Shown here: positions 1,734 to 29,399 of the stretch, piece after piece | Layout: each line of letters begins with the position of its first letter | Numbering within the stretch: the stretch's first letter is position 1 | Assembly (NCBI GenBank): GCA_016939375.1 | Contig: JAFGHF010000034.1 | Span: 13,950-77,949, forward strand | Direction of reading: 5' to 3' | DNA length: 64,000 bases | From: Candidatus Omnitrophota bacterium | GTDB lineage: Bacteria; Omnitrophota; Gorgyraeia; JAFGHF01 | Program-made: the position numbers and the translations under genes | Notes under the pieces: generated by a model | Databases searched by the model: none | The model's input: the letters and a program-made list of their open reading frames with translations, nothing else | What the model was told of the DNA's origin: nothing

Positions 1734-4208
1734 TTAAATATTGATCTTATATTTTTTTTCGGAATGCAAATAATGCAATCTACCGCGGATTTCAACAGGC
1801 AATTTGAATGTTTTAGACTTTGATTTAATCATAGAGACAACCAGCTGTCTGCGCGTTATAGACAAAGAGACCAATTTTTTACGATAGCAAAATTTAAGCC
1901 TGATATTGCGCCAGTGCTTAGGCAGATCCGGATCAATGCTTAAGCCTTTGGAGGTCATTTCTAGGCCCGCAAAAGCTCTTAGTACGATATCGATCGAACC
2001 TCCCATTACTCCTATATGCACTCCCTCAGGGGTAGTCCCTCCTTGAGTATCATAAATATCCGACCTCAATACTTCTACGAACCAATGCCAGGCTTCCCTG
2101 GACCTGCCCAGAAGATGGGTTATATAACAATGCACGACCTTGCTTAATGTCGAACCATGCGATGTGCGTTTAATATAATATTTAAAGTTTTTCTTGAGCA
2201 TATTTTTAGTAAAGCCGTATCCCATCTTATGCAAAAGACTTTCTACTTCCTGTAGAGAAAAAAGGTAAAACATCATCAACACGTCTGCCTGCTTGGCTAC
2301 TTTGTAATCATCGGGAGATTTGCCTTCAGCCTTAAGGATCCTATCTATGCGCTGGATCTTGCCGTATTTCGCACTATAGGCCTGCCAATTCAGTTCCTTT
2401 AACTTGAAATATCCGGCAAATTGGCTTATTATTCCTTCGCGCGTGATGATTATTTTAATCTTACGGGCGATGTCTTCCCAAGAGGCAATTTCTTTTTGAC
2501 TTAATCTCGCCTTTTTTAAAATACGTTTTTTATATGTTGGGGGCAAAATCTGCATAATCTCCTGGGCCCTAAACAATATCCAAGCGATGAGGACATTGGT
2601 ATAAGCGTTGTCTTTTAATCCCGGCTTCTTTGCCTTGGGAAGCCGCTCATGGAACTCATCGGGCCCCATGATGCCATATGTGTGATACCTTTTGTCTTTT
2701 TCATCGTAGCTGACAAGGCTAGACCCAAACTGCGCGATAGACAATATGATTTCCGCCCCATAGCGCAGGAAAAAGTCAAAGTCACCGGTCCTATTCCAAT
2801 ATTCCCAAATATCATAGGCGATATCAAAAGAGATATGTCTTTGTATAGAACTGTAATCCGGGCCCCATTTATTGGATACCGGATTAAGATGTATGACCTG
2901 GGTCTCTTCCTCTCCGCTAGAGGCACTTTGCCAAGGAAACATCGCCCCTTTATACCCATGTTCTCTGGCGTATTTTCTGGCTTGGTCTAAACGCCTATAC
3001 CTATACATAAACAAAGCCCTCGATATCTCCGGATAATGTAGGTCGAAAAACGGCGTAACGTATATCCTGTCCCAGAATACGTGACCGCGATATGCCTCCC
3101 CATGTAATCCTCTTGCCGGCAGTCCTGCGTCAATATCAACGTTGTGCGGGGAAGCGGTCTGTAAAAGATGGAATGTATGCAAACGCAATACCTTCTGCGA
3201 AAATATATCTCCTTCTATTTGGATATCAAACCTATCCCATAACTTATGCCAAGCTTCTTTATGCGTCTTTAGCAGGGCTGCGAAAGTAGGCGCTTCTTTA
3301 GCAGAAACAATCGCGCTTTTAAGCGCATTGCGCACTCCTTTATCCCTGGAAGTGTAGATAGCGACAATCTTTTCTATTTCATAGCGTCTTCTCTTGTGTA
3401 TGTATATTTTAAATTCTTGATAAATTGCTTTTTTCTTTTTGGCAAGTATCATGACCGGGGGCTTTAGTTCCTTTCCTTGAGAAAAAATGCGCACCCTGGC
3501 CGCTTGGCAGATATCGATTTTGGAATGGCTTGTCTTCATGGAAAGATAGGAAATATTCTTTTTTAACATGCCTGAAAAATTGGTCTTTAGATGTTTAGAG
3601 TTTAACTTTCTATAGCGGGCTACACCTGTATTCTGTAGAGTCCCGTCCAAAGCAGACCTGATAGTTATCCAACCCTCATAGTTTTCGGGAACGATACTGT
3701 ATTTTATTGCTGCGCGATGAGGATCGACCATGTGTACTATTCTCTCTGTTTCAATAGTAGTCTTGCGGTCCTTTCTGTCCTGCAGAGAGACTTTTCTGTT
3801 CAAAGCTCCATTGCGCATATCTAGTTCTTTATGATAACAAAGGATATTGCTCGCCGATGGCACAAGCCAATGCTCTTTACCGATGCGGAAGGTCAAAAAT
3901 AACCAATTGGGACAGTTGACCATATCATCGTTAAATATGGTACGGCCGGCGATATGCGTAGGTGTCTTATTGTAAACTCCGGAGATGTAAGTGCCGGGGT
4001 AGTGCACCTTAGAAGCTATGGATTCAGTCGCCGCTCCCCTGGTCCCAAAATAGCCATTGCCCAGAGTACACAAAGCTTCTCTTAAGCTCTCGTCATTGGG
4101 TTCGAATTTCTTATATACCAGCTTCCAGGCCGAGCCTTTTTCTATCTTTCTTCTTATCTTTTTATGCCGTACCCTTGATAACATTTTCGAATAACCTCTT
4201 TGTTTCAT
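1734..4208 (-). CDS. Glycoside hydrolase family 65 disaccharide phosphorylase (trehalose/kojibiose/maltose phosphorylase-like)
   Basis: Shows the LGNGYFGTRG N-terminal signature and the YGIMGPDEFHE catalytic region typical of GH65. The track ORF extends to 4322 but overlaps the upstream gene by 160 nt. The start was therefore placed at internal Met 4208 (4184 is also possible), which is just before the conserved W..VY..F.P..E region. Confidence 0.8.
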   Translation of the reverse strand: MKQRGYSKMLSRVRHKKIRRKIEKGSAWKLVYKKFEPNDESLREALCTLGNGYFGTRGAATESIASKVHYPGTYISGVYNKTPTHIAGRTIFNDDMVNCPNWLFLTFRIGKEHWLVPSASNILCYHKELDMRNGALNRKVSLQDRKDRKTTIETERIVHMVDPHRAAIKYSIVPENYEGWITIRSALDGTLQNTGVARYRKLNSKHLKTNFSGMLKKNISYLSMKTSHSKIDICQAARVRIFSQGKELKPPVMILAKKKKAIYQEFKIYIHKRRRYEIEKIVAIYTSRDKGVRNALKSAIVSAKEAPTFAALLKTHKEAWHKLWDRFDIQIEGDIFSQKVLRLHTFHLLQTASPHNVDIDAGLPARGLHGEAYRGHVFWDRIYVTPFFDLHYPEISRALFMYRYRRLDQARKYAREHGYKGAMFPWQSASSGEEETQVIHLNPVSNKWGPDYSSIQRHISFDIAYDIWEYWNRTGDFDFFLRYGAEIILSIAQFGSSLVSYDEKDKRYHTYGIMGPDEFHERLPKAKKPGLKDNAYTNVLIAWILFRAQEIMQILPPTYKKRILKKARLSQKEIASWEDIARKIKIIITREGIISQFAGYFKLKELNWQAYSAKYGKIQRIDRILKAEGKSPDDYKVAKQADVLMMFYLFSLQEVESLLHKMGYGFTKNMLKKNFKYYIKRTSHGSTLSKVVHCYITHLLGRSREAWHWFVEVLRSDIYDTQGGTTPEGVHIGVMGGSIDIVLRAFAGLEMTSKGLSIDPDLPKHWRNIRLKFCYRKKLVSLSITRRQLVVSMIKSKSKTFKLPVEIRGRLHYLHSEKKYKINI

Positions 4209-5754
4209 CAGGTGAAGCGATCCAAAAGTCAGCTGCCGATTCTGTATTTTCCTGGGCAACCAAGACTCCTGTCCCCCTTGTGCGAACAGCCCTAAAAGCA
4301 TCTTCATCTGTGGTATCATCACCTATATATACTATACAGGTGTCAGACCAGGAGATCTTTAAAGCCTGGATAATCCATCTGACAGCTTTGCCCTTATCCC
4401 AGTCGATCTGAGGCATTATCTCAAACACTTTTTTACCGTTCATTAAACGTATGTCTTTATCTTCCTTGATAACACCTTTAATACATTCTTTGATCTCGGC
4501 AAGATATTTTTCCTGCACAAGACGATAATGGACAGCAACGCTGAACTTTTTATATTCTAACAATATCCCTTGTATATCCCCTAATTTTTGGGAGAGAGTT
4601 TTGGTGATCTCTTTTATTTTAGGAGTGAATTCTTTGGCCTTTGGCTGGATAATAGAAAAATCCGGTCCTGAAATGTCAAAGCCGTGGCTTCCCGCATAAA
4701 TCAACCCTGGGATATCCACAAGCTTCTGCACATCTTCTCTCATTCTCCCGCTGATCACCGCTACTGTATGCAGCTTTGATAGTTCAGTTATGACCTTGCG
4801 CATATCTTCTGACATCACAGCCAATTCCGGACGCTTCACAATAGGCGTTAAAGTGCCGTCATAATCTAAAAAGAAGGCTACTTTCTTGCCCTGCAAGAAG
4901 ACCTCTTTGCCTGTGCGTGAATAATAAGGATTTATGATTGTCGTCTCTGTTTCAACTTTTTCTGTTTTATCCCAGTTTTCAAACAGAGGTCTTGGCTTTC
5001 TATGGAACCACTGTTCGATCCTTTCGATGTCTATTTCGGATAAGTCCCCAACTACTATGTCTGCTCCGTTTTCTAGAAGCTGTACTTCGTTTTCTTCTCT
5101 GGCTACCCCTAAGACTAGTCCAAAGCCACCGTTTCTGCCGGCCTGGACACCCGAGGTAGCATCCTCCACGACCACCGAGCGTGCTGGTTCCGACCCGATG
5201 TTGCGAGAGGCCTTGACAAATATATCCCCTTCGGGCTTACCCTTAAGCCCTAACTCCGCGGAGACTAGACCATCGACCCTGGTCTCAAACAATTCTTCAA
5301 GACCCACGGCCTGCAGGATAACCTGACAACTTTTGGAGGAAGATGCAACTCCTACCCGCACTCCGGCTGCCTTGAGCTGCTTAATAAGCTCTACTGTAGA
5401 AGCATAGACCTCTGCCCCTTCTTTTTTGATAATATCCAAAAACATCTTGTTTTTTTTGTTGCCGATGCCGCAAGCGGTCTCTTCTTCCGGCCCATCCTGC
5501 GGGTCTCCGTATGGGATATGGATACCCCGAGACTCAAGAAAACTTCTTACACCCTCATATCTCGGCTTTCCATCGACATAGGGCAGGTAATCTCCCTCGT
5601 GCGTAAACTCACGAAACGGCTGGCCATCTCTTTTTTCGCGCATGCGCATATATTCATCAAACGTAGCCTTCCAGGATTTACCGTGCACCAGTGCTGTCTG
5701 CGTGATCACGCCATCCAAATCAAATATGACTGAATCGAACGAATATTTCTTCAT
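4162..5754 (-). CDS. Fusion protein: beta-phosphoglucomutase (HAD-IA) N-terminal half plus trehalose-6-phosphate phosphatase-like (OtsB/HAD-IIB) C-terminal half
   Basis: N-terminal VIFDLDGVITQT ... KGKPEGDIF ... VVEDATSGVQAG is the beta-PGM motif set. C-terminal VAFFLDYDGTLTPIV ... IYIGDDTTDEDAF matches the OtsB-type DYDGTL signature. Length 530 aa. Confidence 0.8.
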   Translation of the reverse strand: MKKYSFDSVIFDLDGVITQTALVHGKSWKATFDEYMRMREKRDGQPFREFTHEGDYLPYVDGKPRYEGVRSFLESRGIHIPYGDPQDGPEEETACGIGNKKNKMFLDIIKKEGAEVYASTVELIKQLKAAGVRVGVASSSKSCQVILQAVGLEELFETRVDGLVSAELGLKGKPEGDIFVKASRNIGSEPARSVVVEDATSGVQAGRNGGFGLVLGVAREENEVQLLENGADIVVGDLSEIDIERIEQWFHRKPRPLFENWDKTEKVETETTIINPYYSRTGKEVFLQGKKVAFFLDYDGTLTPIVKRPELAVMSEDMRKVITELSKLHTVAVISGRMREDVQKLVDIPGLIYAGSHGFDISGPDFSIIQPKAKEFTPKIKEITKTLSQKLGDIQGILLEYKKFSVAVHYRLVQEKYLAEIKECIKGVIKEDKDIRLMNGKKVFEIMPQIDWDKGKAVRWIIQALKISWSDTCIVYIGDDTTDEDAFRAVRTRGTGVLVAQENTESAADFWIASPDETKRLFENVIKGTA

Positions 5755-5779
5755 ATACCCTCATCACAGTTACAATCAA

Positions 5780-6391
5780 TTATTCCTTTCCGATTTTGAT
5801 TACTTTCACACTATCAAATATGCAGGTACCTTTTCCGGGCGTGCGCGGCTCGAACTGAAAACTCATGATCGGAAAATCCAGAATATCATTCTTCTGGGCG
5901 GTCTGCGGCTGCCAATCCGTGCGCACAAAAAATTTATTAAACGGGCAGGCTATCTCCCTCCAGCCCTCAAAATCATCGTTAAGTAAAAAACGCCATATCT
6001 CTCCGCCGGCGTCTTTGACATCCAAAGCGATCATAGCACCGCTTTTGGCTCCATACATAGACAGAGCAAGCGCCTGATATGCGTTCCAACGTACTTTCTG
6101 AGGTTTAAGCAACCAACGTGCGGCTCCTTTTACATCAAGATTATAACCGCGCGCACACCACATATATCCTTTTGGGTGAAGTTGATAAGTAAGCTTAATC
6201 GCTTGATCTCCGCATGTCTTCAACTGCTTCTCTGCGTAGATCTCTAAAGACGAATCGGCAGATGAGCCAAAATCCACTGTTTCACTATTTAACTCTCCCT
6301 CAAAACTATCGATCAAAACCTGATCGGGGACACTACAACCGGCACAGATCACAACAAAGGTTACTGCCCCGGCCAAAAATAATCTTTTCAT
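5780..6391 (-). CDS. Hypothetical lipoprotein (signal peptide plus Cys lipobox; possible beta-sandwich or carbohydrate-binding-like domain)
   Basis: MKRLFLAGAVTFVVICAGCSV is a lipoprotein signal peptide. The rest has no recognisable catalytic motif. The gene is tightly packed between ldcA and the beta-PGM fusion. Confidence 0.45.
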   Translation of the reverse strand: MKRLFLAGAVTFVVICAGCSVPDQVLIDSFEGELNSETVDFGSSADSSLEIYAEKQLKTCGDQAIKLTYQLHPKGYMWCARGYNLDVKGAARWLLKPQKVRWNAYQALALSMYGAKSGAMIALDVKDAGGEIWRFLLNDDFEGWREIACPFNKFFVRTDWQPQTAQKNDILDFPIMSFQFEPRTPGKGTCIFDSVKVIKIGKE

Positions 6392-6401
6392 ATTTCCTCC
6401 T

Positions 6402-7352
6402 TTATCTTTTTACTCCTGCCTCATTTATTACCAATTTCGGATAATCGGCATCGATCGTAACCGGGACTCCGAAAGGCAATGTCACGTCGATCTCTCCTTG
6501 CCCACGGTGTCCCGATGGAAACCCATATATTATGGGGAAATGTGCATCGTGGAGTATATCATTAAGTATATCCCTGATGGTATACCTTTTCCCGGAATAA
6601 TCAAGGCAGTCGATCATCCGGCCAAAGACTATTCCTTTTAATTTACGGAATTTACCGGAAAGCTTAAGATGCATAAGATAATTGTCGATGACTTCTAAAT
6701 CTTCGCCGATATCTTCAAGAAAAAGAATCTTGTTATCTGTGTCGATGTCGTAAGCCGTGCCCAATGCGCTTATAAATAAGGACATATTGCCGCCAACCAA
6801 TACACCTGTCGCCTTGCCGGGCCTTAGAGACCTTAATGAAGAAAAGTGCAGCTCCCCCAAAGCAATGGGCTGGGTGATCGCCTGCAATAAATAATCCAAT
6901 GTGATCGAGTTCATATTATCATGTATCTCATCCGATACCACCGGACCGTGAAACACTACCATATTTACGGTCTTATAGAGATAAGAAAGAAGGATCGTTA
7001 TATCGCTGTAACCGATAAATATCTTGGGGTTTCTTTTTATTATTTTTTTGTTCAGATAGGGAATGGTGCGTATGGAACCGTAGCCGGCTTTAGCGCAAAA
7101 GATTGCCTTTACCTCTTTATCGGCAAACATGCGGTTGATCTGCTGAGCCCTTTCCTTATCATAACCGGCCATAGACCAGTATTTACTGAAAATCGAGCGA
7201 TCAAATTTTACCTTAAAGCCCAATTTTCTTAGTTTGTCTATTCCCCTTTTGAAATTGCCGATATCAAATGACCAGGCTGGCGCTACGATACCTATCGTAT
7301 CGCCTTTTTTTAGACGCGCTGGTTTAGTCGCTTTTCTTCTACGCATCTTCAT
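6402..7352 (-). CDS. ldcA: LD-carboxypeptidase, peptidase S66 family (LdcA/MccF-like)
   Basis: GDTIGIVAPA ... IGYSDITIL ... FHGP motifs arranged as a Ser-His-Glu S66 triad; 316 aa. Confidence 0.75.
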   Translation of the reverse strand: MKMRRRKATKPARLKKGDTIGIVAPAWSFDIGNFKRGIDKLRKLGFKVKFDRSIFSKYWSMAGYDKERAQQINRMFADKEVKAIFCAKAGYGSIRTIPYLNKKIIKRNPKIFIGYSDITILLSYLYKTVNMVVFHGPVVSDEIHDNMNSITLDYLLQAITQPIALGELHFSSLRSLRPGKATGVLVGGNMSLFISALGTAYDIDTDNKILFLEDIGEDLEVIDNYLMHLKLSGKFRKLKGIVFGRMIDCLDYSGKRYTIRDILNDILHDAHFPIIYGFPSGHRGQGEIDVTLPFGVPVTIDADYPKLVINEAGVKR

Positions 7353-8325
7353 CGCGCACCTTGACCCGGGGAAACCATATTGCCCTGTAGCTTAAAGTAT
7401 ATTTGCCCTGGATATACTGCCAGGCCTTATCTATTATTCTCTCCGCGATATGCACTATTAGGTCGTCGGGGAGACCGTCTTTATGTTTAGACTGGGGGTA
7501 GACCGCGCATTGGTCATTCATATAGTCCACGACCAAAAACTTGCGGTTTCTCTTATTTATCGCTATCTCGCAGGAGAACCAGTCAATGCGTGTTATGCGT
7601 CCGATCTCCGAAGATATGCGTATCAGCGGAAGCAATTTATATTCATCTAGCTCTTTGAGCGTAACCTGGCGAAATATATTAGTATAAGGGTTCCACCAAC
7701 AGGGGATCACCTCGCCGAATAAATTATAGACTCTAAACCAGGCCGGCTTGCCTGCCAATTTCAAAGGCTCCACAAATTCCTGTAATAAAAAGTTGTCTCC
7801 TATGTCAAATCTACGCGCCTTAGCTATTTCTTTAAGCGTCTGTCTTTTGTTGATTATTTTAACTCCTTTTTGCCCATAGCCCATTGCCGGCTTGATTACA
7901 AAGGGAAACCGCAGTTTCTTTTTTTCTTGATGCGACAGCCTTCTAGTAGGCTCCCAATTCCTGATCACTATAGTATAAGGTACGGGGACCTTGGCCCGCA
8001 ATAGGTCAAAGTGGGTGATTGATTTATCCGCGGCCTCTTTGACATCATCGGGATCGGCTACTATCCGCGTCCCTGCATCCTTCAAGCTATAGGCAAGCCT
8101 GGTAAATTTGTCTGCAGGGTCATAGGTCTCTGAAGCCATGTCTAGATAGAATTTAACGATCAACCTGCCTTTTTTGACCGCATTGATCAGTTTTTTTAGT
8201 TTTCTCGGGCCGATAAAAACAAAGCTCAGCTTACGCGCCCTACACTCTGCTTTTAAGGCATTAATAAAAAGCTCTCGCTTGACATGCTCTTCGGGCCAAC
8301 CTATGGCAAAATCAAATTTATCCAT
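7339..8325 (-). CDS. ATP-grasp domain protein (RimK/glutathione-synthetase-like ligase)
   Basis: FVIKPAMGYGQKGV phosphate-binding loop and LLQEFVEP are ATP-grasp hallmarks. It overlaps ldcA by 14 nt, which suggests translational coupling. Confidence 0.6.
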   Translation of the reverse strand: MDKFDFAIGWPEEHVKRELFINALKAECRARKLSFVFIGPRKLKKLINAVKKGRLIVKFYLDMASETYDPADKFTRLAYSLKDAGTRIVADPDDVKEAADKSITHFDLLRAKVPVPYTIVIRNWEPTRRLSHQEKKKLRFPFVIKPAMGYGQKGVKIINKRQTLKEIAKARRFDIGDNFLLQEFVEPLKLAGKPAWFRVYNLFGEVIPCWWNPYTNIFRQVTLKELDEYKLLPLIRISSEIGRITRIDWFSCEIAINKRNRKFLVVDYMNDQCAVYPQSKHKDGLPDDLIVHIAERIIDKAWQYIQGKYTLSYRAIWFPRVKVRDEDA

Positions 8326-8368
8326 ACGCCTTTTACCTCCTGATAAGATAAATATATTAAGAGGTCTT

Positions 8369-9817
8369 TTACTTTATAGCGGTTTCGGCTTGCTTATCTT
8401 TCTTTATAGAATTACATTTTTCCGGACATTCGCCTGTCCAGCAATATAGACACAACTTTTTCTTTGGCAGGCCGATAGCATCGACCATATCGCCTACCTT
8501 CTGATATCTTAAACTGCTCACTTCTAGATCTTTAGTGATCCATTCTACCATCCGCTTGTATTCATCCGTGCTCTCATCCAAGTATTTGGAGACATCCTCT
8601 ATGTCCCGTCCCTCTAGGCTACGGATAGCTTTGCGGGCCGCCAATTCATTGATGCTACGCGTAGATAGGTTAAATTTACAGGGAAACATTAACGGCGGAC
8701 AAGCGGGCCTGATATGTATCTGGCGGGCCCCGGCATCCCATAGTTTCTTGACAGTGAAATTTTTAAGCTGGGTACCTCTGACAATTGAATCTTCGCAGAC
8801 GACTATCCTATTTCCATCGATTATCTCTTTAATAGGGATAAGCTTTAATTTGGCTATTAAATCACGGGACTCCTGCGAGGGCGGGGTGTAACTGCGGCCA
8901 TATCCCGGCGTATATTTTACCAGGGGCCGCTTAAACGGTTTTGCTGACTCTATGGCATAACCTAAGGCATGGCCGGTCCCGGAATCAGGCACACCGGAAA
9001 CAATATCCACCTCTATATCTCTGTCGCGCTTGGCCAAAAGCCTGCCACATCTTTCCCTTACCTGTTCGACATTTATCCCTTCATAGCTGGAAGCTGGAAA
9101 ACCGGTATATATCCAAAGAAAAGCACAGATTTGTTCGGTGTCTTGAGCTTGTTTCTTCTGCACCAGCCCACCTTCATTGATCAATACTATTTCTCCGGGC
9201 TGAAGATACCTTTCGACCTCAAGCCCGAGGTTGGGAAAGGCGCTTGTCTCCGAAGTCACCGCCCATTCATTCTGCCGCCTTCCTATAACCAGGGGAGTAT
9301 AGCCTAATCTATCGCGGGCGGCATAGACCCCGTCTTTGCTCAATAATAAAAGCGAACAAGAGCCGACTATATCTTCAAACATCCTCTCTATGCCGTCGAT
9401 TATGTTTTCGCCCTGACTGATTAATTTAGCCGCTAATTCCGTGGTATTGACCGTGCCCTTGCTTACTTCGCTGAAAGAAATCCCTTTATTTAAGAGTCGT
9501 TCTGCCAATTCCTCGGCATTTTCTATTAGTCCGTTTGTGACAATGCAAAAGGGGCCAAACTTGGACTGCAGATAAATAGGCTGTTCATCAAAGGCGCTGA
9601 TTGCCCCGATGCCTTTTGTGCCTTTCATTCTTTTATAATCTTCGTAGAACTTGGATTTAAACTGGCTTTGACTGATGCTATGTATCTGGCGCACAAAATC
9701 ATCTCCTAAAACAGCCATCCCGCCGTACTCAGTACCTAGATGTGAATGGTAGTCGGTGCCAAAAAACAGTACTTCCGTACAGTCTTTTTCTGATACCGCG
9801 CCAAAGATCCCGCTCAT
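8369..9817 (-). CDS. Amidophosphoribosyltransferase-like protein (PurF family) with Ser in place of the N-terminal nucleophile Cys
   Basis: Full PurF architecture is present: Ntn glutaminase domain (MSGIFG..., YTGFPAS), PRTase motif IVVCEDSIVRGTQL, VSGVPDSG, and C-terminal Cys ligands (PACPP..FPC, CLYCWTGEC) like those of [4Fe-4S] PurF. Residue 2 is encoded by AGC (Ser) rather than TGC (Cys). A strong GGGGAGGAAAAG SD precedes the ATG. Confidence 0.75.
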   Translation of the reverse strand: MSGIFGAVSEKDCTEVLFFGTDYHSHLGTEYGGMAVLGDDFVRQIHSISQSQFKSKFYEDYKRMKGTKGIGAISAFDEQPIYLQSKFGPFCIVTNGLIENAEELAERLLNKGISFSEVSKGTVNTTELAAKLISQGENIIDGIERMFEDIVGSCSLLLLSKDGVYAARDRLGYTPLVIGRRQNEWAVTSETSAFPNLGLEVERYLQPGEIVLINEGGLVQKKQAQDTEQICAFLWIYTGFPASSYEGINVEQVRERCGRLLAKRDRDIEVDIVSGVPDSGTGHALGYAIESAKPFKRPLVKYTPGYGRSYTPPSQESRDLIAKLKLIPIKEIIDGNRIVVCEDSIVRGTQLKNFTVKKLWDAGARQIHIRPACPPLMFPCKFNLSTRSINELAARKAIRSLEGRDIEDVSKYLDESTDEYKRMVEWITKDLEVSSLRYQKVGDMVDAIGLPKKKLCLYCWTGECPEKCNSIKKDKQAETAIK

Positions 9818-9857
9818 CTTTTCCTCCCCTAATTTATTAAGTTTTACGACTTAAACT

Positions 9858-11219
9858 TTACAAACTCAATAATGCCCTGGCAATTTCAAAGTAGATGATT
9901 AAGGCTGTTATGTCGACAACTGTTGAAATAAAAGGTCCTGCCGCAACTGCCGGATCGACTTTGAGTTTTTTCAATAGTAACGGCAGAAAGGCACCGCTTA
10001 ATGTAGCCATCACGATAGTAGCAGCTAAAGCAAGTCCTACGGCAAGACTGACAAATGGGTTTTTCTGCAGCAACAACGCTCTGCCCACCCCTAAAATTCC
10101 CAGCAAACTGCCTAGAACCAAACCTAGGCTTATTTCCCTACGCATAACTTTAAGCACTTGATTAAGATGTATGTCTCCCGTGGCCAATCCTCTTATGATA
10201 GTGGTGCTGGATTGAGTACCTGCGTTACCGGCCGTATTAAGAAGCATGGGGATGAAGTATGAGAGTGCCACCACCGCCTCTAAGGCAAAACCATAATGTT
10301 TTAATATTTGTCCGGAAAATTGCACAGCCGCAAGCAAAATTATCAACCAGACTATACGCCGTCGGACAAGAGTCAGAAAGCCGGTATCGAAATAGGGGTC
10401 TTCCGGAGCCAACATAGCCGCCATTTTGTAGAAGTCTTCTGTATTTTCGTCCCGGACTACATCGAGAATATCATCGACTGTCACTATGCCTACCAACTTT
10501 TTATCTTTGTCTATTACCGGTAAGGCCAATAGATTATATTTACGTACTGTGCGGGCCACTTCTTCCTGATCCTGATATGCCTGGGCTTTTATTACTTTAC
10601 GGTTCATTATCTTTTTTATCGGCGCAGTCGGATCAGACAAAAATATGTCCTTAAGTGAAACAAAACCTATCAGTTTCTCCTGCTGATCGGTCACATAAGT
10701 ATAGTATATTGTTTCTTTCTTGGGGGCCGCCAGCTTGATGATCTCCGAAGCCTCGGCTACAGTCAATTCAGGGGTCAAAGAGATGTATTCGGTAGTCATA
10801 ATACTGCCGGCAGAATTAGGCGGGTATTTTAGAAGTTTCTCGACATCTTTACGCTCAGACTCGCTCATCAAGTTGAGAAATTTATTGGCTACTTCGTCTG
10901 GCAGGCTGCTAAGCAGGTCTGCCCGCTCGTCAGAAGACATCTCATTGAGAAGGTACGTCGATAATTCCTTTTCCAAGCTGTGCAAAAGCTCGAACTGCTC
11001 ATATTCGTCCAGTTCGTCAAAGATTTCGATCACCTGTTTTTTATCCAGGCGACTTATCAAGGCAACCTGTTCTTTTATATCCAAATCAAAAATGGTATCG
11101 GCGATATCAGCGGGATGCATTTCCTTTACCGCTTCCTGCAACTCTTCCTTCTTATTCAGCTTGAGAAGCTCTCTGATTTCAGGCGTCATGATTGATGCAG
11201 GTCTCATATGTATCACCAC
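9858..11219 (-). CDS. mgtE: Magnesium transporter MgtE
   Basis: MgtE N-domain, tandem CBS pair and C-terminal TM domain with the conserved GNAGTQSS...ATGD region; 453 aa. Confidence 0.9.
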   Translation of the reverse strand: MVIHMRPASIMTPEIRELLKLNKKEELQEAVKEMHPADIADTIFDLDIKEQVALISRLDKKQVIEIFDELDEYEQFELLHSLEKELSTYLLNEMSSDERADLLSSLPDEVANKFLNLMSESERKDVEKLLKYPPNSAGSIMTTEYISLTPELTVAEASEIIKLAAPKKETIYYTYVTDQQEKLIGFVSLKDIFLSDPTAPIKKIMNRKVIKAQAYQDQEEVARTVRKYNLLALPVIDKDKKLVGIVTVDDILDVVRDENTEDFYKMAAMLAPEDPYFDTGFLTLVRRRIVWLIILLAAVQFSGQILKHYGFALEAVVALSYFIPMLLNTAGNAGTQSSTTIIRGLATGDIHLNQVLKVMRREISLGLVLGSLLGILGVGRALLLQKNPFVSLAVGLALAATIVMATLSGAFLPLLLKKLKVDPAVAAGPFISTVVDITALIIYFEIARALLSL

Positions 11220-11220
11220 C

Positions 11221-11973
11221 TTATAATATTAAAAAACTTAAAGCTAGCGCTAGGATCAAGCAGTAGTATCCAAAGAAATGCAACTTTGCTTTGCGAATGG
11301 CTAAAAGCAAAATTTTCAGAGCCAATAGACCGCTCAAAAAAGAAGTAAAAAAGGCAAAAGACATATATTTAAGTTCGCATAGCGCAAGATTAGAAAAACA
11401 TCCTAATTCTAGAAAAAGCGCTCCCAAAACGGCCAATATCGAAGCTAAAAAGGAAAACTTAAACGCTGTCTCGCGTTCCACGTTGCGCAATAAAAGGGTA
11501 GAAATAGTAAGCCCGGAACGGGAAAGTCCGGGAATTACGCAAATCCCTTGTACCAGGCCAAAGCATACTGCATCCGCAGGCTTTAGATGGGTAAGCTTTC
11601 TGCCATCAAGCGCATGCCTTTTCGTAAATATCAGTACTATCCCTGTTATCGCTAAGGGCAAAGATACGTATTTAGCCGACAAAAACAGGCTTTCAAAAAA
11701 ACCTTTGCCTAGAATCGCGACTAAAGCGGTCGAAAAAGTGGCCAACAGCACTAAAAAGATTATTTTTTTGTTTAAAAAACTTTTTATATCGCGATATAAA
11801 AAGACGATTATCGCCAGCAAAGTGCCCAGATGCAATACAATATCCAATATAAGCTGATTGTCCTGGATATCTAGAAGTTCCTGAAATATGACCAAATGAG
11901 CGGAACTGCTTACCGGCAAAAATTCGGTCAATCCCTGAATCAGCCCTAAAAATATATATTTAATTACCAGCAT
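11221..11973 (-). CDS. uppP: Undecaprenyl-diphosphatase
   Basis: GLIQGLTEFLPVSSSAHL BacA/UppP signature and PGLSRSG motif; 250 aa polytopic membrane protein. Confidence 0.9.
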   Translation of the reverse strand: MLVIKYIFLGLIQGLTEFLPVSSSAHLVIFQELLDIQDNQLILDIVLHLGTLLAIIVFLYRDIKSFLNKKIIFLVLLATFSTALVAILGKGFFESLFLSAKYVSLPLAITGIVLIFTKRHALDGRKLTHLKPADAVCFGLVQGICVIPGLSRSGLTISTLLLRNVERETAFKFSFLASILAVLGALFLELGCFSNLALCELKYMSFAFFTSFLSGLLALKILLLAIRKAKLHFFGYYCLILALALSFLIL

Positions 11974-12877
11974 TTTCTATGACGATGTCTTTTACATATA
12001 AAGTGCTTTGGGCGGGATTCTGCACTGTGGAGAAGCCAAATTCAAGCCCTATATGCACAACGCTGGAGAGGTCTATTTTTGATTGATGTTCTATCGGTCT
12101 TATTACTACTTGCTGCCAATCGTCCAAGAGACCCTCCTCCCTCATTATCACCAATTGCGGCTCATAATCCTTAGCGAATTTATCGCGGAATGTCAACTCT
12201 AGTTTCTCTCCCCCTTCTTTGCCTTTTAGCGTAAGCACTATTTGCTTTTTTCGTAAATCCAGAGGGCTGGCGAAATCCATACCCATACATGACCAGGTAC
12301 GAAAACTGCCGTTGACCAACTTCAGCGACTCATCTTCCTGTGAATGCACACAGGCTCCATAAAAGCCCAATTTCTTTACCAGCTGCGGGTCTTGTTTGCC
12401 TTCTCTTATTATCGAGCCTTTTTCGGGCTGTTTTGGTGCAGAAAGTGAAGTCAGCTTGGCCTGTGCTTGAAAATCATCGGGCACAAGCGCGCAATATCTC
12501 TTAAGATGTTTTTGGGCCTTCTTCGCATCTCCATTACTTAAACTTATTTCTGACAAAAGATAATGCGGCTCTGGCACATCCGGATATTCCTTGGTAAATT
12601 GCAAAAATATATCTTCGGCCTGCTCATAATCACCCCTTTGATAATCGACAATGGCCTTGAGATAACTAAACCTGGGTTCATCCGGATATTGAGCGATCAA
12701 TTCCTGCAAAAGCACAGAGGCCTCCTGATACATCTCTGTCTCAAAGTAGATCTGCAGCTTTTCTAGCTTTTCATCTACCTGCGATTCGTATTCCCAGGTC
12801 ACATCAAAACAGTAGCCGTTAAACGCCGCTAAAACAAGCATGGCCATTAAAATAACAATTTGTTTTGCTCTGTCCAT
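11960..12877 (-). CDS. Secreted TPR-repeat protein with an uncharacterised C-terminal domain
   Basis: Signal-peptide-like MDRAKQIVILMAMLVLAAF followed by TPR-like repeats (YQEASVLLQELIAQYPDEP..., YEQAEDIFLQFTKEYPD...). The track start at 12925 overlaps the upstream gene by 79 nt, so the start was moved to the internal Met. Confidence 0.45.
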   Translation of the reverse strand: MDRAKQIVILMAMLVLAAFNGYCFDVTWEYESQVDEKLEKLQIYFETEMYQEASVLLQELIAQYPDEPRFSYLKAIVDYQRGDYEQAEDIFLQFTKEYPDVPEPHYLLSEISLSNGDAKKAQKHLKRYCALVPDDFQAQAKLTSLSAPKQPEKGSIIREGKQDPQLVKKLGFYGACVHSQEDESLKLVNGSFRTWSCMGMDFASPLDLRKKQIVLTLKGKEGGEKLELTFRDKFAKDYEPQLVIMREEGLLDDWQQVVIRPIEHQSKIDLSSVVHIGLEFGFSTVQNPAQSTLYVKDIVIENAGN

Positions 12878-13878
12878 TTGATTAACCTCCTTGTCCCTTC
12901 CTGTATAGGTATTTCTGGTTGCCAATTAAGTTTTTCTTTTAGTTTGTCTATATTTGATATGTATACCTTTTGGTCTAACGGCCTCCAATTAGAAAAGTTT
13001 ACTTTTGTCGTAGAATTCAACTCCTTGTCTAAAAACTTCAAAAAGTCAAGTAGTGAAATGCAATTATTAGGGCCTCCTCCTATATTAAATACAGCGTGTT
13101 TTAGATCGCTTTTGATGAAAGCGTCAAATGCATAGATCAGATCCTCGACATACAGAAGATCCCTCACCTGCTTGCCGTCTCCATAAATAGTTATCGGCTT
13201 CTTAAGCAGACTGGCCACAACAAACCAGGCCACCCAACCTTGGTCTTCAAAACCAAATTGCCTTGTGCCGTATATACAGCTCATCCGAAATACGGCTGTG
13301 CGCATCCCGTATACTCTGGCATATTCTTGGGTGTAAAGGTCTCCCACATACTTACTCGCGCCATAGGGGGTATGCCCGGTATGATCTATGGGAACAGCCT
13401 CATCAATATCGCTTATATCTTTATACCTGTATTGCGAGGCGTTCTCCTCTAAACCATACCTGTCTACATTTTCGCCGTATACTTTATTGGTTGAGCAATA
13501 GATAAATGTGGCCCCGGGAGAATGTTTCCTTAACGCCTCTAATACGTTTAAGGTCCCATAGGCGTTGATAGCGAAATCTTCCCTGGGGATTCTGGAAGAA
13601 GAAGGCACGCCCGGTTGAGCAGCAGCGTGGATCACCACGTCTACGCCTTTAACGACTTTTGCTACGTCTTCTTCATCCCTAATATCCCCGATGACCCTGT
13701 TGATATTTTCATATTGCTTTAGATAATCCCAATTATAGCCCACGCATTTCTTCGTAGACCCAAAAAGTTTGGGACGGATCAAGTTGTCAAAGGCAATAAC
13801 ATCCGCTTTTTGACGGGCATAATATTCGGCTGCATGGCTGCCCACCAGACCTGCGCCACCGGTGACCAAAACCCTCAT
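12847..13878 (-). CDS. NAD-dependent epimerase/dehydratase (extended SDR, sugar-nucleotide epimerase family)
   Basis: MRVLVTGGAGLVGSH Rossmann motif and a YxxxK region (YGASKYVGD); 343 aa. Confidence 0.8.
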   Translation of the reverse strand: MRVLVTGGAGLVGSHAAEYYARQKADVIAFDNLIRPKLFGSTKKCVGYNWDYLKQYENINRVIGDIRDEEDVAKVVKGVDVVIHAAAQPGVPSSSRIPREDFAINAYGTLNVLEALRKHSPGATFIYCSTNKVYGENVDRYGLEENASQYRYKDISDIDEAVPIDHTGHTPYGASKYVGDLYTQEYARVYGMRTAVFRMSCIYGTRQFGFEDQGWVAWFVVASLLKKPITIYGDGKQVRDLLYVEDLIYAFDAFIKSDLKHAVFNIGGGPNNCISLLDFLKFLDKELNSTTKVNFSNWRPLDQKVYISNIDKLKEKLNWQPEIPIQEGTRRLIKWTEQNKLLF

Positions 13879-16913: not shown

Positions 16914-17047
16914 TTTAGCCCTAATATCCTACCACAAAGGCCCCCTTTTTGCAAGTGAAATGCAGATTAAGGCCTTTGAGCCTAATACCCGCTGCTTTTG
17001 TCAATTGCTTGACAGGGACCAGAGAAGGTGGTATATTGTTATGCACT

Positions 17048-17809
17048 GTGTTCAGGCTTTGGACAAAAAATTTTATAAATCTAATTTACCCTTTATCTTG
17101 TATAATTTGTAAGATAAAACTGCATCCTTTAAGCGAAAAGCCGTTGTGCGAGAACTGCTGGAATAAAATTGAGTTAACAACGCCTCCTTTTTGCAGGATT
17201 TGCGGAAAAAGCCTCTCTGCCCCGCAAAAACACGGACAGGCAGACAGGCCTGCGAAAACTCAAAATCAAGCCTTTGTATGCAGCAGTTGTCAAAAGTCCT
17301 CATATTTTTTCAAAACATCGCATTCTGTCTGCAGTTACGATGGTATAATTAAAGATTGCATCCATTTGTTTAAGTATAAAGGCAAGCTATCATTGGCCAA
17401 GCCTTTAAGTTTATTCCTGATCGGGTTTGCAAATAAGTTTTTAGATATGGAAAAAGTAGATATGGTCATGCCCGTGCCTTTATGCAGACAGAAAATCCGA
17501 CAAAGGCAGTTTAACCAAGCTTTATTATTAGCCAAACCCCTGGCTTGTGCCTTTGCAACACAAATCGATAACAAGACTTTAGTCAAAGTCAATTCTGGTC
17601 CGGCCCAGGTCTCATTAAGCAAGGCGGAAAGGCTCAATAACGTAAAAGGGGCATTCAGGGTCAAGGGCAGAAGATCAATCAAAGACAAAAGTATTTTGCT
17701 GGTAGACGACGTCTTTACCACTGGCGCGACAGCAAATGAATGTGCTAAAATATTGAAAGAGGCAGGCGCAAGTTCAGTACAAGTATTGACGCTGGCCAGG
17801 AGTAATTGA
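17048..17809 (+). CDS. comF: ComF family protein (phosphoribosyltransferase-domain competence protein ComFC-like)
   Basis: Two CxxC pairs (CIICK...CENCW, CRICGK...CSSCQ) and the C-terminal PRTase motif ILLVDDVFTTGAT. The track ORF starts at ATG 16949, but the first 30 codons look non-coding. GTG 17048 is a plausible true start; this is uncertain. Confidence 0.65.
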   Translation: MFRLWTKNFINLIYPLSCIICKIKLHPLSEKPLCENCWNKIELTTPPFCRICGKSLSAPQKHGQADRPAKTQNQAFVCSSCQKSSYFFKTSHSVCSYDGIIKDCIHLFKYKGKLSLAKPLSLFLIGFANKFLDMEKVDMVMPVPLCRQKIRQRQFNQALLLAKPLACAFATQIDNKTLVKVNSGPAQVSLSKAERLNNVKGAFRVKGRRSIKDKSILLVDDVFTTGATANECAKILKEAGASSVQVLTLARSN

Positions 17810-25505: not shown

Positions 25506-26969
25506 TTAAAACTTGAACCTGCGCTCTACCCCCAAGATGCCTTCGTCTTTCCTTAAACGGAGCTTGATAGTCTTATCTCCGAAAATCTTGTATTCTAACC
25601 CCAGTTCATTTGTATATACATCTTCCAATCCCATACTGTGTTCGTCAATAAATGTATCGAAGGTGACCTTAACATCCTCGGCGATGTTCTTGGACATATG
25701 TACAGTATTATAGTGATCGTCCCGAGTTATATCCCAGCCCTTCCAAAATATTCCTTTGTCCGCTGAGAAGTTCAACTCAAAGCTATTGATGTTAGAAAAG
25801 TCTATTTCCCCATCCATGATGAAAGATTCGTCTTCACGACTGACCCGCGAATCGACGATAAAGATCTTAGGATATTGGCCTTCGAGATTAATATCGGCAC
25901 TGATAAAATCCAATTCGCCAAAATTCCCGTTCTTGGACTCCAAATACCCCTCAAGCTTAAGGGTATCTAAGGGCCCCGTCATCTTGATCAGGCCATTGAC
26001 CAGGCCGGAAAAATCCGGGCGCTCGGGATACGTCAGCTTGGCCATCAATTCATGGGGTGCGGCCTGAAAAAAGTTCAAAGACAGGTCCGCTGAGAAAGGT
26101 TTTTCTAGCTCCACAATGCCGCGCAGATCATACTCTTCCCCTATAGCACAGGTCAAGATACGCAACTGCTTATCTATGATCTCAAACGAGGAGTTTAGCT
26201 CGGAGAAAGGGCGGTTATTGAGTACCGTGCCGTATGTCTTGAGGGTGCCGGATATCTTTTCCTTTGCTTTATCCACCCCGAGCTTTTTGGTAATAGATAA
26301 AGTAGCGTTGGTAAGTATATCAAAGTTTTTCGCTTTTAAGTGGTTGAGGTTGAGGGTAACCAACAATTTTTCAGAGGTCAACTCTCCGTACATATTTAAC
26401 GCATCTTGAGGATTATCCTTTAACACCGCCTTAATATCCTGAAAGTAAAGGCCGTCACTATTTAAGAAAAGTCTGCCTTCAAGGTCTGTAAGCAAAGGTG
26501 CTTCTTTATCAAATAAGACTGTACCTTTTTCTAAGATGAACACAAAGTCCCTAGAGATAAATTTGGGTATTGTGTCTTGAGGAGCAGATTTCAAGCCAGA
26601 TTGCATCTTTTCTCTGGGTTGACCAGAAAGCCTGAGCGTAGGAGAGATAAGCCTCAATATAGGCACGTCCTCGGGCTCGGAAAATAAAAGCTCCTTTAAG
26701 CTATAGTCGATACGGGCCTGGTCTACCGTGATATCAAAGTTAAATCCGGAATCACCGCTGAAGCTGATCTTTAGTTTTTCCACTACTACTCCGCTTAAAA
26801 TGGCTGGCTTGATCTTTCCGATAGAAAGCTCGCAATGAAGGCTCTTGGCCAGGCTTTCCTCAATTAGTGTCTTTACCTTTTGAAAGAATAGCTCCTTTCG
26901 AATATAGACAAAGACGAACATAGCAGAAAGCAAAAGAAACGCAATAAATGTTTTTCGCCCTCTACGCAA
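25506..26969 (-). CDS. Hypothetical membrane-anchored protein (possible AsmA-like periplasmic lipid-transfer protein)
   Basis: Single N-terminal TM (FIAFLLLSAMFVFVYI) then a 460-aa soluble region. Overlaps the clpC stop by 8 nt and lies immediately upstream of mlaE. The family assignment is an inference from context only. Confidence 0.4.
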   Translation of the reverse strand: MRRGRKTFIAFLLLSAMFVFVYIRKELFFQKVKTLIEESLAKSLHCELSIGKIKPAILSGVVVEKLKISFSGDSGFNFDITVDQARIDYSLKELLFSEPEDVPILRLISPTLRLSGQPREKMQSGLKSAPQDTIPKFISRDFVFILEKGTVLFDKEAPLLTDLEGRLFLNSDGLYFQDIKAVLKDNPQDALNMYGELTSEKLLVTLNLNHLKAKNFDILTNATLSITKKLGVDKAKEKISGTLKTYGTVLNNRPFSELNSSFEIIDKQLRILTCAIGEEYDLRGIVELEKPFSADLSLNFFQAAPHELMAKLTYPERPDFSGLVNGLIKMTGPLDTLKLEGYLESKNGNFGELDFISADINLEGQYPKIFIVDSRVSREDESFIMDGEIDFSNINSFELNFSADKGIFWKGWDITRDDHYNTVHMSKNIAEDVKVTFDTFIDEHSMGLEDVYTNELGLEYKIFGDKTIKLRLRKDEGILGVERRFKF

Positions 26970-29397
26970 AGATAAGCTCCTCTTTTTTGCGAGTGACTAC
27001 AATTTTTTTGGACTGTTTAGGTTTATTTTTGATTATTTCTTCAGAAAGAGGATCTTCCAAAAACCTTTGGATCGTGCGTTTTAGAGGACGGGCACCGAAA
27101 ACAGGATTGAAGCCTTTTTCAATAAGAAATTCCTTTGCTTCCTTTGACAGCTCCAAGGTAAGCTGTTTATCGGCCAGCCTTTTCTGCACTTCCCCTATTT
27201 CGATCTCTACTATTTTAAACAAATCGTCCTTGGTTAATGGACGAAAGACATTTATATCGTCGATGCGGTTTAAGAATTCCGGCTTGAAAGTCCGCCTTAC
27301 CTCGTCAAGAAGTTTCTTTTTCATTTCACTGAAGGTAACTTCCTCCTGCTGAGACTTAAAGCCGAGCGAACCTTGCTTCCTAAGCATCTCCGCTCCGATG
27401 TTGGAAGTCATGATCAAAATGGTATTGCGGAAGTCTACCTTTCTGCCAAAACTGTCGGTAAGCCTTCCGTCTTCTAAGACCTGCAGGAGAATATTGAAGA
27501 CATCGGGATGGGCCTTCTCTATCTCATCCAAAAGCACTACCGAGTATGGCCTGCGCCTTACTTTCTCGGTCAACTGCCCCCCTTCCTCATAACCCACATA
27601 TCCCGGAGGGGCACCGACCAACCGAGAGACATTAAACTTCTCCATATATTCCGACATATCAAGCTGTATAAGGGCATCCTCATCGCCAAACATAAATTCT
27701 GCCAAGGCCCTGGCCAAAAGCGTCTTGCCTACTCCTGTTGGTCCCAGGAAGACAAAAGAACCTATTGGCCTGCGCGGGTCTTTGATGCCGGCTCGGGAAC
27801 GTCTCACTGCACGGGCGATAGCAGCAATAGCTTCGTCTTGACCGATCACCCTTTTGTGCATTTCTTCTTCCATTTTTAAAAGTTTCTCTGATTCCTTCTG
27901 TTCTAATTTGGAAACAGGCACCCCAGTCCATTTGGAAACGATCTGGGCAATATCCTCTTCTCCTACAGTAGGTATCACTTCTATCTTTTTCTTATTCCAA
28001 CTTACTTTTACTTTGCCTAATTCTTGTTTGGCCTCCCTCTCTTGATCTCTAAAATGGGCGGCTTTCTCAAAATCCTGGCTTTTTATTGCCGCCTCTTTTT
28101 CTTTCCTGATATCTTCTATCTTTTTCTCTAACTCCTTTAGATCCGGAGGTACGGTAAGCGCCGAAAGCCTGGCCCTTGCTCCGGCTTCATCCATTAAGTC
28201 TACCGCTTTATCGGGAAGATAACGCCCGGTTATATAACGGTCGGAAAGCTTGGCCGCTTCTTCCAGCGCTTCATCAGTAAACTTCACTTTGTGATGGGCT
28301 TCATATTTATCCCTTAGTCCTTTCAATATATCTATGGTCTCTTTCACCGTTGGAGGCTCAACCATGATGGTCTGAAACCTACGTTCCAAAGCCGCGTCTT
28401 TCTCGATATATTTGCGGTATTCGTCCAGAGTAGTGGCCCCGATACATTGGGCCTCTCCGCGAGAAAGGGCTGGTTTTAAGATATTGGATGCGTCTATAGC
28501 GCCTTCCGCCCCCCCGGCCCCGACCAAGGTATGCAACTCATCAATAAACATGACGATGTTCTCGGATTTCTTGATCTCGTCCATGATCGCCTTGATGCGT
28601 TCCTCAAACTGGCCACGGTACTTAGTACCCGCTACCATCAAGGCCAAATCTATAATAACTATACGTTTATCCTGTAGCACTTCAGGAACGTTGCCTGCTA
28701 CTATTTGCTGGGCCAGGCCTTCGACAATAGCTGTCTTGCCTACTCCTGCTTCACCTAAAAGCACAGGGTTATTCTTGGTGCGCCGACTCAAAATCTGGAT
28801 CACCCTCTCGATTTCATTTTGTCGGCCAATGACCGGGTCGAGTTTTCCTTCGTTTGCCAAGTGGGTCAGGTCTCTACCGAACGCATCGAGCGCCGGGGTC
28901 TTGCTTTTAGCCTTAGGTCCTGGTGCATTAGAAACAGCCGGTCCACTTTGCCCGGGGATACCTTGACCCAAAAGCTCCATTATCTCATGCCTGACTTTAT
29001 TTAAGTCTAAGCCTAGGCCCAAAAGTACTTGGGCGGCAACTCCTTCGCCTTCGCGCAATAGACCCAAGAGCAGATGTTCAGTGCCGATATAATTATGGCC
29101 CAGGCTCCTAGCTTCTTCCATCGACAGTTCGATTACGCGTTTGGCCCGGGGGGTAAAAGGAATATCTCCGGAGACAGAAGAAGCAGGCCCTGGTTGGACC
29201 AATTTTTCTATTTCCAGCCTTATCTTGTCTAAACCCAAACCCATATTCTGTAATACCGCGCTAGCCACTCCTTCTCCTTCGCGAATCAAGCCCAGGAGGA
29301 TATGCTCAGTGCCGATATAATCGTGATTAAAACGCTTGGCTTCTTCCTTAGCCAAAATAATTACTTTTCTGGCTCGCTCAGTAAAACGATTAAACAT
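26962..29397 (-). CDS. clpC: ATP-dependent Clp protease ATP-binding subunit ClpC
   Basis: Starts [20 protein letters not shown] (Clp_N repeat x2), two AAA+ modules ([16 protein letters not shown]), a UVR-like middle segment and sensor motifs. The track extends to 29661, but the canonical ClpC N-terminus begins at ATG 29397. Confidence 0.9.
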
Positions 29398-29399
29398 AT

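Follow-up and report, generated by a model that had tools for sequence, protein, structure and literature searches.

The window analysed here, a 64,000-nucleotide stretch of contig JAFGHF010000034.1 from a Candidatus Omnitrophota bacterium, contains a run of three minus-strand genes at positions 6402–9817, which encode a protein resembling the amidophosphoribosyltransferase PurF, a divergent ATP-grasp ligase, and an S66 serine peptidase. Our results showed that the PurF-like protein belongs to a kind already noticed, the PurF paralogs lacking the catalytic cysteine, and that its family is ancient and highly conserved. By sequence comparison, the ATP-grasp and S66 genes form a separate unit whose two members co-evolve and have kept their catalytic residues. 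It is quite probable that the three genes do not make up one pathway. The reading that we favor, and to which we attach moderate confidence, is that the PurF-like gene and the ATP-grasp/S66 pair are functionally unrelated units, each with the role proposed below, which are neighbors only in the immediate lineage of this organism.

Loss of the catalytic cysteine in the PurF-like protein

The PurF-like gene (8369..9817, minus strand) encodes 482 amino acids in the open reading frame (ORF) listing and begins with MSGIFG. Its start reads ATG AGC GGG and is preceded, at a distance of six bases, by the ribosome-binding site GGGGAGG (9823..9829, minus strand). Codon 2, AGC (9812..9814, minus strand), places Ser at the site of the catalytic Cys1 of PurF, so that the start described in the initial annotation was seen again in our reading of the nucleotides. 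A base-call error at 9812–9814, which had been considered there, was ruled out, since Ser or Asn occupied this position in all of the 120 nearest homologs (118 Ser, 2 Asn, and no Cys, with N-termini M-S-G or M-N-G). These homologs were 73–80% identical and came from Omnitrophota, Planctomycetota, Elusimicrobia, Firmicutes, and NPL-UPA2, and the Ser is thus a trait of the family. The identical protein is itself recorded for a Candidatus Omnitrophica metagenome-assembled genome, encoded on a contig of 94,459 nt. In some archaeal purF genes the Cys was hidden by mis-called starts (Brown et al. 2011; PMC3261824). A start of this sort was also rejected for the window gene: an in-frame Cys further upstream is impossible because the annotated start is the first start codon after the stop and has a strong ribosome-binding site, and the N-terminus of the family is M-(S/G)-G.

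Twelve members of the PurF-like family were aligned with five canonical PurFs and with that of E. coli, whose residue numbering is used here. In the family, Arg26 was replaced by Leu (LQHRGQ to HSHLGT), an 11-residue deletion removed the GHVRYxTxGS loop together with Arg73 and Tyr74, and Asp127 was substituted beside a 5-residue insertion, while Asn101 was present in the window protein and unconserved in the family. The retained elements were the pyrophosphate (PPi) loop VxGVPDSG, Lys326, Arg332, the phosphoribosyl pyrophosphate (PRPP) loop (E/D)DSIVRGTQ, and the four Fe-S cysteines. Given the absence of Cys1 and of these glutamine-site residues, the glutaminase of the PurF-like protein is very probably dead, with no Ntn (N-terminal nucleophile) glutaminase mechanism left.

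The initial annotation had offered two explanations for the Ser, namely a Ser nucleophile or a dead glutaminase with dependence on ammonia, and of these only the dead glutaminase agreed with our results. Nucleophilic Ser is known among the Ntn hydrolases, for example in penicillin acylase, and Ser2 is nearly invariant in the closest clade of the PurF-like protein (118/120). Over the loci of the wider family, however, position 2 was Ser in 46, Gly in 34, Thr in 1, and Val in 1, and the members carrying Gly, Thr, Val, or Asn were otherwise highly similar. Since Gly occurs at this position, and does so in nearly half of the wider family, the residue at position 2 is no nucleophile. The deletion of the glutamine-binding Arg73 loop and the substitutions of Arg26 and Asp127 argue in the same direction. 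In the account given by Brown et al. (PMC3261824), where Mei and Zalkin 1989 is cited, the C1S and C1A variants of E. coli PurF lost the activity with glutamine and kept the use of ammonia; the former tells against a Ser-type Ntn glutaminase, which we regard as extremely improbable for this protein, and the use of ammonia remains plausible.

The two-domain architecture, in which an Ntn fold is followed by a type-I phosphoribosyltransferase (PRTase), was the same as that of the Fe-S type PurF of B. subtilis (PDB 1AO0/1GPH), and the PDB sequence search gave 181 bits against 1AO0 over residues 3–395. The match to GATase_7 scored 55 bits. On TIGR01134, the equivalog of glutamine PRPP amidotransferase (EC 2.4.2.14), the protein reached 219 bits, under the cutoff of 350, which together with the lost glutamine-site residues bore out the earlier view that it is not a standard PurF. 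The PRPP loop and the Fe-S ligands recognized earlier were likewise present. The PRPP loop IVVCEDSIVRGT was found, and CEDSIVRGTQ, the PPi loop VSGVPDSG, and the flexible-loop residues K301...R308 were conserved at a level of at least 97% in 69 sequences, while C231, C380, C456, and C459 aligned with the Fe-S ligand cysteines of Cys-type neighbors. In addition to the losses described above, the window protein differed from PurF in having RGTQ for RGTT and YTGFPAS for YFARPDS, roughly 25 extra residues inserted close to the C-terminus, and a new GTDYHSHLGT motif.

This motif is invariant in the family and sits in the Ntn-fold N-domain exactly at the old active site of PurF, in place of LQHRG. 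Among the 69 full-length members, 111 positions were conserved at 97% or more. The “dead” N-domain accounted for 42 of them, among which were G20-T21-D22-Y23-H24-S25-H26 and G28, and 59 of the 167 PRTase positions reached the same level. The column conservation of the N-domain was 0.72, compared with 0.63 for the glutaminase domain of PurF from the same genomes, and the PRPP loop, the PPi loop, Lys326, and Arg332 were more conserved than in PurF itself. From these comparisons, the N-domain has been remodelled rather than decayed, and the PRTase site and the Fe-S ligands are intact and highly constrained.

Purine operons and the role of the PurF-like family

With one genome scanned per species, the PurF-like family was found in at least 600 species genomes, covering many bacterial phyla as well as Methanosarcinales, Thermoplasmatota, and Asgard archaea. 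An exhaustive representative search gave 8,671 matches at E ≤ 1e-3, of which 1,041 reached E ≤ 1e-30. It showed that Cys-less forms (MSG, MGG, MTG, MAG, and others) have radiated more widely and that nearly all of them carry RGTQ instead of the RGTT of the canonical PRPP loop. Cluster records for divergent representatives of the Ala type led to metagenomic proteins. A few forms (P0283, P0302, P0310, and P0343) combined Cys1 and LQHRG with RGTQ, and the GHVRY loop was absent from them as judged by a simple motif search, not by alignment. Judging from these motifs, such forms may stand midway in the evolution of the Cys-less family from PurF.

The PurF-like family is embedded in purine operons. 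A canonical Cys-containing PurF adjoined the paralog in nine loci, four of them from Planctomycetota (L006, L007, L009, and L012), two from Omnitrophota (L023 and L031), one from Methanosarcinales (L033), and two from Asgard archaea (L055 and L066). The gene order was purF-purM-PurF-like in the four Planctomycetota loci, purSL-purQ-purF-PurF-like-purM in L023, and purQ-PurF-like-purF-purM-purD-purE in L031, where the PurF-like gene and purF overlapped by 4 nt. In L032 the order was purB-purSL-LOG-purQ-PurF-like-purM...purD-purE, and L029 was arranged in the same way except that no purQ was detected; in both loci the PurF-like gene filled the purF slot, and a canonical purF was found in neither. 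In most PurF-like loci, the window included, no canonical purF was nearby. In every genome of the nine loci, the paralog and the canonical PurF of the same genome were 28.7–30.4% identical. Between genomes, the paralogs shared 64.8% identity on average and the canonical PurFs 50.1%, and across domains the values were 52–65% and 35–40%, respectively.

Several other genes were observed beside the PurF-like gene. Full-length CarB (about 1,066 residues) lay directly next to it in 8 of the 83 PurF-like loci (L002, L004, L019, L025, L035, L059, L070, and L078), and CarB fragments occurred in L080. No homolog of CarA, the glutaminase subunit, was present in any of the 83 loci, so that two nucleotide-pathway enzymes without glutaminase function are neighbors where CarB stands beside the PurF-like gene. 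A DUF1846 (UPF0371) protein of about 510–570 residues adjoined the PurF-like gene in five loci (L004, L005, L018, L019, and L082). In the two Omnitrophota pur operons without canonical purF, a LOG/SLOG-type “lysine decarboxylase-like” gene, of a family of nucleotide 5'-monophosphate nucleosidases, was located just after purSL, namely between purSL and purQ at L032:4734-5426 and at the equivalent position in L029.

Although no precedent had been cited in the initial annotation, a description of Cys-less PurF paralogs that cluster with pur genes dates from 2011. In every crenarchaeon studied by Brown, Hoopes, White, and Sarisky (Biol Direct 6:63; PMC3261824), one PurF was accompanied by one PurF′, a second PurF-like protein without the N-terminal Cys, which was encoded close to purF and other pur genes, had Ala or Val at position 1, and was proposed, without test, to be an ammonia-dependent PRPP aminotransferase. 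A Ser-containing copy was reported for Methanocorpusculum in the same paper. Searching the literature for experiments on PurF paralogs without the Cys, or on systems that combine an ATP-grasp with S66, led to nothing other than Brown et al. 2011. The present family resembles PurF′ as a Cys-less paralog that coexists with Cys-containing PurF and clusters with pur genes in 9–11 loci, and the window gene can be termed PurF′-type. The likeness is one of description: crenarchaeal PurF′ has Ala or Val where the present family has Ser or Gly, and PurF′ was described from Crenarchaeota, whereas the present family spans many bacterial phyla together with Methanosarcinales, Thermoplasmatota, and Asgard archaea.

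Together with the sequence features above, this context leads us to propose, tentatively and with slightly less than even confidence, that the PurF-like protein is an ammonia-dependent phosphoribosylamine synthase. It would make phosphoribosylamine from PRPP and free ammonia, and the first step of purine synthesis would then run without glutamine, possibly together with canonical PurF. The function matters because it bears on the nitrogen supply to the first committed purine step in many anaerobes and on why two PurF-type proteins are retained, a duplication that was flagged as unexplained in 2011. Automatic pipelines label the PurF-like proteins “amidophosphoribosyltransferase”, and because of this name metabolic reconstructions of Omnitrophota, Planctomycetota, Syntrophia, Aminicenantes, Asgard archaea, and others count these proteins, very probably glutaminase-dead, as normal glutamine-dependent PurF.

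Alternatively, the PurF-like protein may serve canonical PurF as a regulatory or catalytically inactive partner, a pseudoenzyme subunit which in mixed oligomers would tune the activity or the feedback inhibition of PurF. The canonical purF adjacent in nine loci, the 4-nt overlap in L031, the constant pairing of one PurF with one PurF′ in the crenarchaea of Brown et al. (PMC3261824), and the change of the YFARPDS motif to YTGFPAS would all suit such a partner. A pseudoenzyme, however, is difficult to reconcile with the conservation of the PRPP loop, the PPi loop, Lys326, and Arg332, which exceeds that in PurF, with the position of the PurF-like gene as the sole purF-type gene of a full pur operon in L029 and L032, or with the majority of loci, the window among them, where canonical purF is not nearby. 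We consider it unlikely.

The constraint on the N-domain, stronger than that on the PurF glutaminase domain, raises a further possibility, which is that the protein was neofunctionalised. The N-domain with its invariant D22-Y23-H24-S25-H26 would then bind or cleave another nitrogen donor or sense a metabolite, or the PRTase would use an acceptor other than ammonia. A new motif placed exactly at the old active site in the stead of LQHRG, the wide radiation of Cys-less RGTQ forms, and the adjacency of CarB in eight loci, with CarA absent from every locus, are in line with this, but the purine-operon context fits the normal product, and the unconserved position 2 excludes an Ntn-type mechanism, so that neofunctionalisation in this form is, if anything, more doubtful than a regulatory role. 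A bolder version, speculative and in our estimate improbable, is that the GTDYHSHLGT family is a distinct and ancient class of PRPP-dependent enzymes in which the pocket Asp22-Tyr23-His24-Ser25-His26 has been rebuilt to catalyse or to sense something new, be it a different nitrogen donor or an allosteric effector. If so, the PurF-like protein would be the real or a co-essential first purine enzyme in many anaerobic bacteria and archaea, and the recurrent pairing with a CarB that lacks CarA would agree with an ammonia-based entry into nucleotides that does not depend on glutamine.

The ATP-grasp/S66 pair

The ATP-grasp gene (7339..8325, minus strand; 328 residues in the ORF listing) encodes a protein with only weak resemblance to RimK. 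The RimK Pfam family gave 25 bits, and the best family, TIGR00768 for alpha-L-glutamate ligases of the RimK family, gave 55.2 bits against a cutoff of 143.4. The ATP-grasp motifs FVIKP (K145), LLQEF (Q182), and VVDYMNDQ (D267 and N270) were identified, and K145, Q182, D267, and N270 were invariant in 34 sequences. The AlphaFold2 model had a mean confidence (pLDDT) of 86, and Foldseek assigned it a probability of 1.0 against ArgX, LysX, Ddl, and RimK. The structural matches were ArgX (3VPC), LysX (3VPD), Ddl, PsnB, and RimK, with TM-scores of about 0.55–0.64, and the likeness to RimK, LysX, ArgX, and Ddl consists of the ATP-grasp fold, the conserved Lys, the hinge, and the Mg-binding motifs; identity to these structures was only 11–17%, and every family score was far under its cutoff. 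The domains of GARS (PurD), GARS_N, GARS_A, and GARS_C, gave no match in the window protein, while true PurDs elsewhere scored 176 bits on GARS_A. The subfamily question raised in the initial annotation can thus be answered in part: by fold the protein is nearest to LysX/ArgX, Ddl, PsnB, and RimK, but it misses the RimK cutoff and is not a PurD. The family is small, with 298 database matches, mainly from Omnitrophota and annotated as hypothetical. A role in the synthesis of peptides made by the ribosome and modified after translation (RiPPs), of the graspetide type, to which the structural neighbor PsnB points, was rejected, as no conserved small upstream ORF was seen, the gaps were short, and the neighbors were variable.

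The S66 gene (6402..7352, minus strand; 316 residues in the ORF listing) encodes a peptidase with both S66 domains (121.9 bits for the N-domain and 107.9 bits for the C-domain), and the triad Ser116/Glu213/His282 was invariant in 19 of 19 partners. On the LdcA equivalog NF008424 it scored 115.7 bits, with a cutoff of 378, and it was nearer to the MccF-like structures (PDB 4E5S and 3TLA; 122 bits) than to those of the LdcA type (PDB 1ZL0, 5Z01, and 6UUK; 64–93 bits). No genes of the Mcc type (mccABCDE) were present in the window or in about 20 paired loci, and the peptidase was in every case encoded beside the ATP-grasp. Among 38 loci whose ATP-grasp showed 50% identity or more, S66 was the next downstream gene in 20, usually overlapping, and in several of the remaining loci the contig ended at the ATP-grasp gene. 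Across the paired loci, the identity of S66 (54–72%) tracked that of the ATP-grasp (51–69%).

In other genomes the ATP-grasp gene had further neighbors, either in the absence of S66 or along with it. In L085 (6001-10208), the ATP-grasp homolog was followed by a 685-residue, two-halved D-Ala-D-Ala-ligase-like protein (312 bits, Ddl subfamily), and a Peptidase_S58 (DmpA-type) gene stood in place of S66. Two Ddl-like ligases and a lysine 2,3-aminomutase were neighbors in L086, and agmatinase or CdaA lay beside the ATP-grasp gene in L102 and L092. The common theme of these neighborhoods was small D-amino-acid peptides of the cell-wall type, not nucleotides.

An extended cluster was also observed in L087/L108 (6001-12625), which contained S66, a ThrC-like enzyme of the pyridoxal-phosphate-dependent kind (NF004996, 423 bits), a MftE/creatininase-like hydrolase, an MR_MLE epimerase, and an 859-residue DgcN-like protein, faintly similar to MurL and apparently of the PP-loop type in its C-terminal half. 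A cluster of this kind surrounded the ATP-grasp gene in L105, L106, L113, L100, L111, L112, and L124 as well. It may represent an uncharacterised pathway for D-amino-acid peptides.

We infer that the pair is a peptide ligase/carboxypeptidase module, in which the ATP-grasp would add, and S66 would remove, a C-terminal residue on a small D-amino-acid peptide of the cell-wall type. Two known systems are partly similar. In Pseudomonas, RimK, an ATP-grasp that adds C-terminal residues, is paired with the removing peptidase RimB; the window pair shares the arrangement of a residue-adding ATP-grasp encoded with a peptidase, but the peptidase families differ. In Bacillus, the S66 peptidase YkfA and the dipeptide epimerase YkfB take part in murein-peptide turnover, and an S66 gene is likewise encoded with an MR_MLE epimerase in L087. 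The pair is thus a compact, conserved, and uncharacterised ligase/peptidase module of Omnitrophota, which is probably tied to peptides of the cell-wall type.

Arrangement of the three genes in the window

The stop of the ATP-grasp gene and the start of the S66 gene overlap by 14 nt (7339..7352, minus strand, in the ORF listing), as noted earlier, which is an arrangement of translational coupling. The further statement that the PurF-like gene was translationally packed with them held for this junction and not for the other, where 43 nt separated the PurF-like stop from the ATP-grasp start and the spacer carried a ribosome-binding site of the ATP-grasp gene (AGGAGG; 8336..8341, minus strand, by nucleotide reading). 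Within the three-gene stretch, translational coupling is confined to the ATP-grasp/S66 junction. Nearly all genes of the 64-kb window are on the minus strand, and because of this the co-orientation of the three genes is weak evidence for an operon.

Homologs of the window ATP-grasp or S66 occurred in none of the 83 other PurF-like loci, and about 20 other contigs carried the ATP-grasp followed by S66 without a PurF-like gene. The order PurF-like, ATP-grasp, S66 was repeated only in L120, the closest relative (83% identity), on a contig of 1,950 nt found by the ATP-grasp search, and because no other locus repeats it, the PurF-like/ATP-grasp junction is real but lineage-specific. Conservation of the triad in related genomes, which the initial annotation had wished to see examined, was therefore limited to this relative. 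In another Omnitrophota locus, L014, whose PurF-like protein was 73% identical, the PurF-like gene was followed directly by a homolog of the window lipoprotein (L014:9840-10451, 53% identity), which is the arrangement of the window minus the ATP-grasp/S66 pair.

These distributions bear on the pathway suggested in the initial annotation, in which the PurF-like protein, the ATP-grasp, and S66, with the adjacent lipoprotein, would build or edit a phosphoribosylamine-derived or peptidyl-nucleotide compound. The analogy is with MccF and with purine synthesis, where PurF is followed by PurD, an ATP-grasp that acts on phosphoribosylamine; the genes lie side by side in one orientation with short spacing, in the same order as in L120; no terminator was predicted between them, in a scan whose counts were at or below the shuffle expectation; and S66 scored highest against MccF-like structures. 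Against this stand the absence of the pair from the 83 other PurF-like loci, the roughly 20 pairs without a PurF-like gene, an ATP-grasp whose likeness is to LysX/ArgX, Ddl, and RimK and which lacks the signature of GARS, the direct junction of the PurF-like gene and the lipoprotein gene in L014, and the co-orientation of the whole window. A single pathway is very improbable on this comparison, and the idea that the three genes form a novel nucleotide-peptide pathway should be given up.

The picture of two unrelated units, an ammonia-using phosphoribosylamine synthase and a peptide module, has its own difficulties. No purine (pur) gene, canonical purF included, was found in the 64-kb window. 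In L023 and L031 the PurF-like gene lies in one operon with canonical purF, and co-transcription of the two would be unexpected for a mere ammonia-using isozyme; the shared operon together with the strong conservation of the “dead” N-domain hints at an additional or different role. The substrate predicted for the ATP-grasp/S66 module rests on neighbors in other genomes. Lastly, co-transcription of the three genes within their own lineage is possible, considering the order in L120 and the lack of a predicted terminator.

The promoter and terminator scan of 5500–11500 found no terminator between the three genes and was uninformative, since its counts were at or below those expected from shuffled sequence. 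No Rfam family reached its gathering score in the whole window or in 14 loci with long leaders upstream of the PurF-like gene, giving no sign of a riboswitch, and all-against-all blastn detected no conserved leader upstream of the PurF-like gene other than coding sequence of close relatives.

The lipoprotein gene adjoining S66 (5780-6391, minus strand) encodes a CBM11-like protein (PF03425, 67.5 bits), which had no association with the ATP-grasp/S66 pair in other loci; the tetratricopeptide repeat (TPR) protein at 11960-12925 showed no similarity to it. Only one other protein of the PRTase fold was noted in the window. It is ComF-like, combines a double zinc ribbon with a PRTase domain, and is encoded by one of the few plus-strand genes (16949-17809).

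The remainder of the window is of a housekeeping character, with PFK, a GH65 phosphorylase, a trehalose-phosphatase/HAD fusion, MgtE, UppP, CNNM transporters, LptF/G, RadA, ClpC with McsB, LysS, and Lnt. At 26962-30464 (minus strand), the gene of a ClpC-type AAA+ chaperone that contains a UVR motif precedes that of a protein arginine kinase, an McsB-like ATP:guanido phosphotransferase, a pairing best known from Firmicutes and here found in an Omnitrophota genome. The ORF of the GH65 phosphorylase (1734-4322, minus strand, GTG start) overlaps the upstream trehalose-phosphatase/HAD fusion (4162-5754, minus strand) by 161 nt, and its true start is probably an internal Met, as the Pfam match begins at residue 70.

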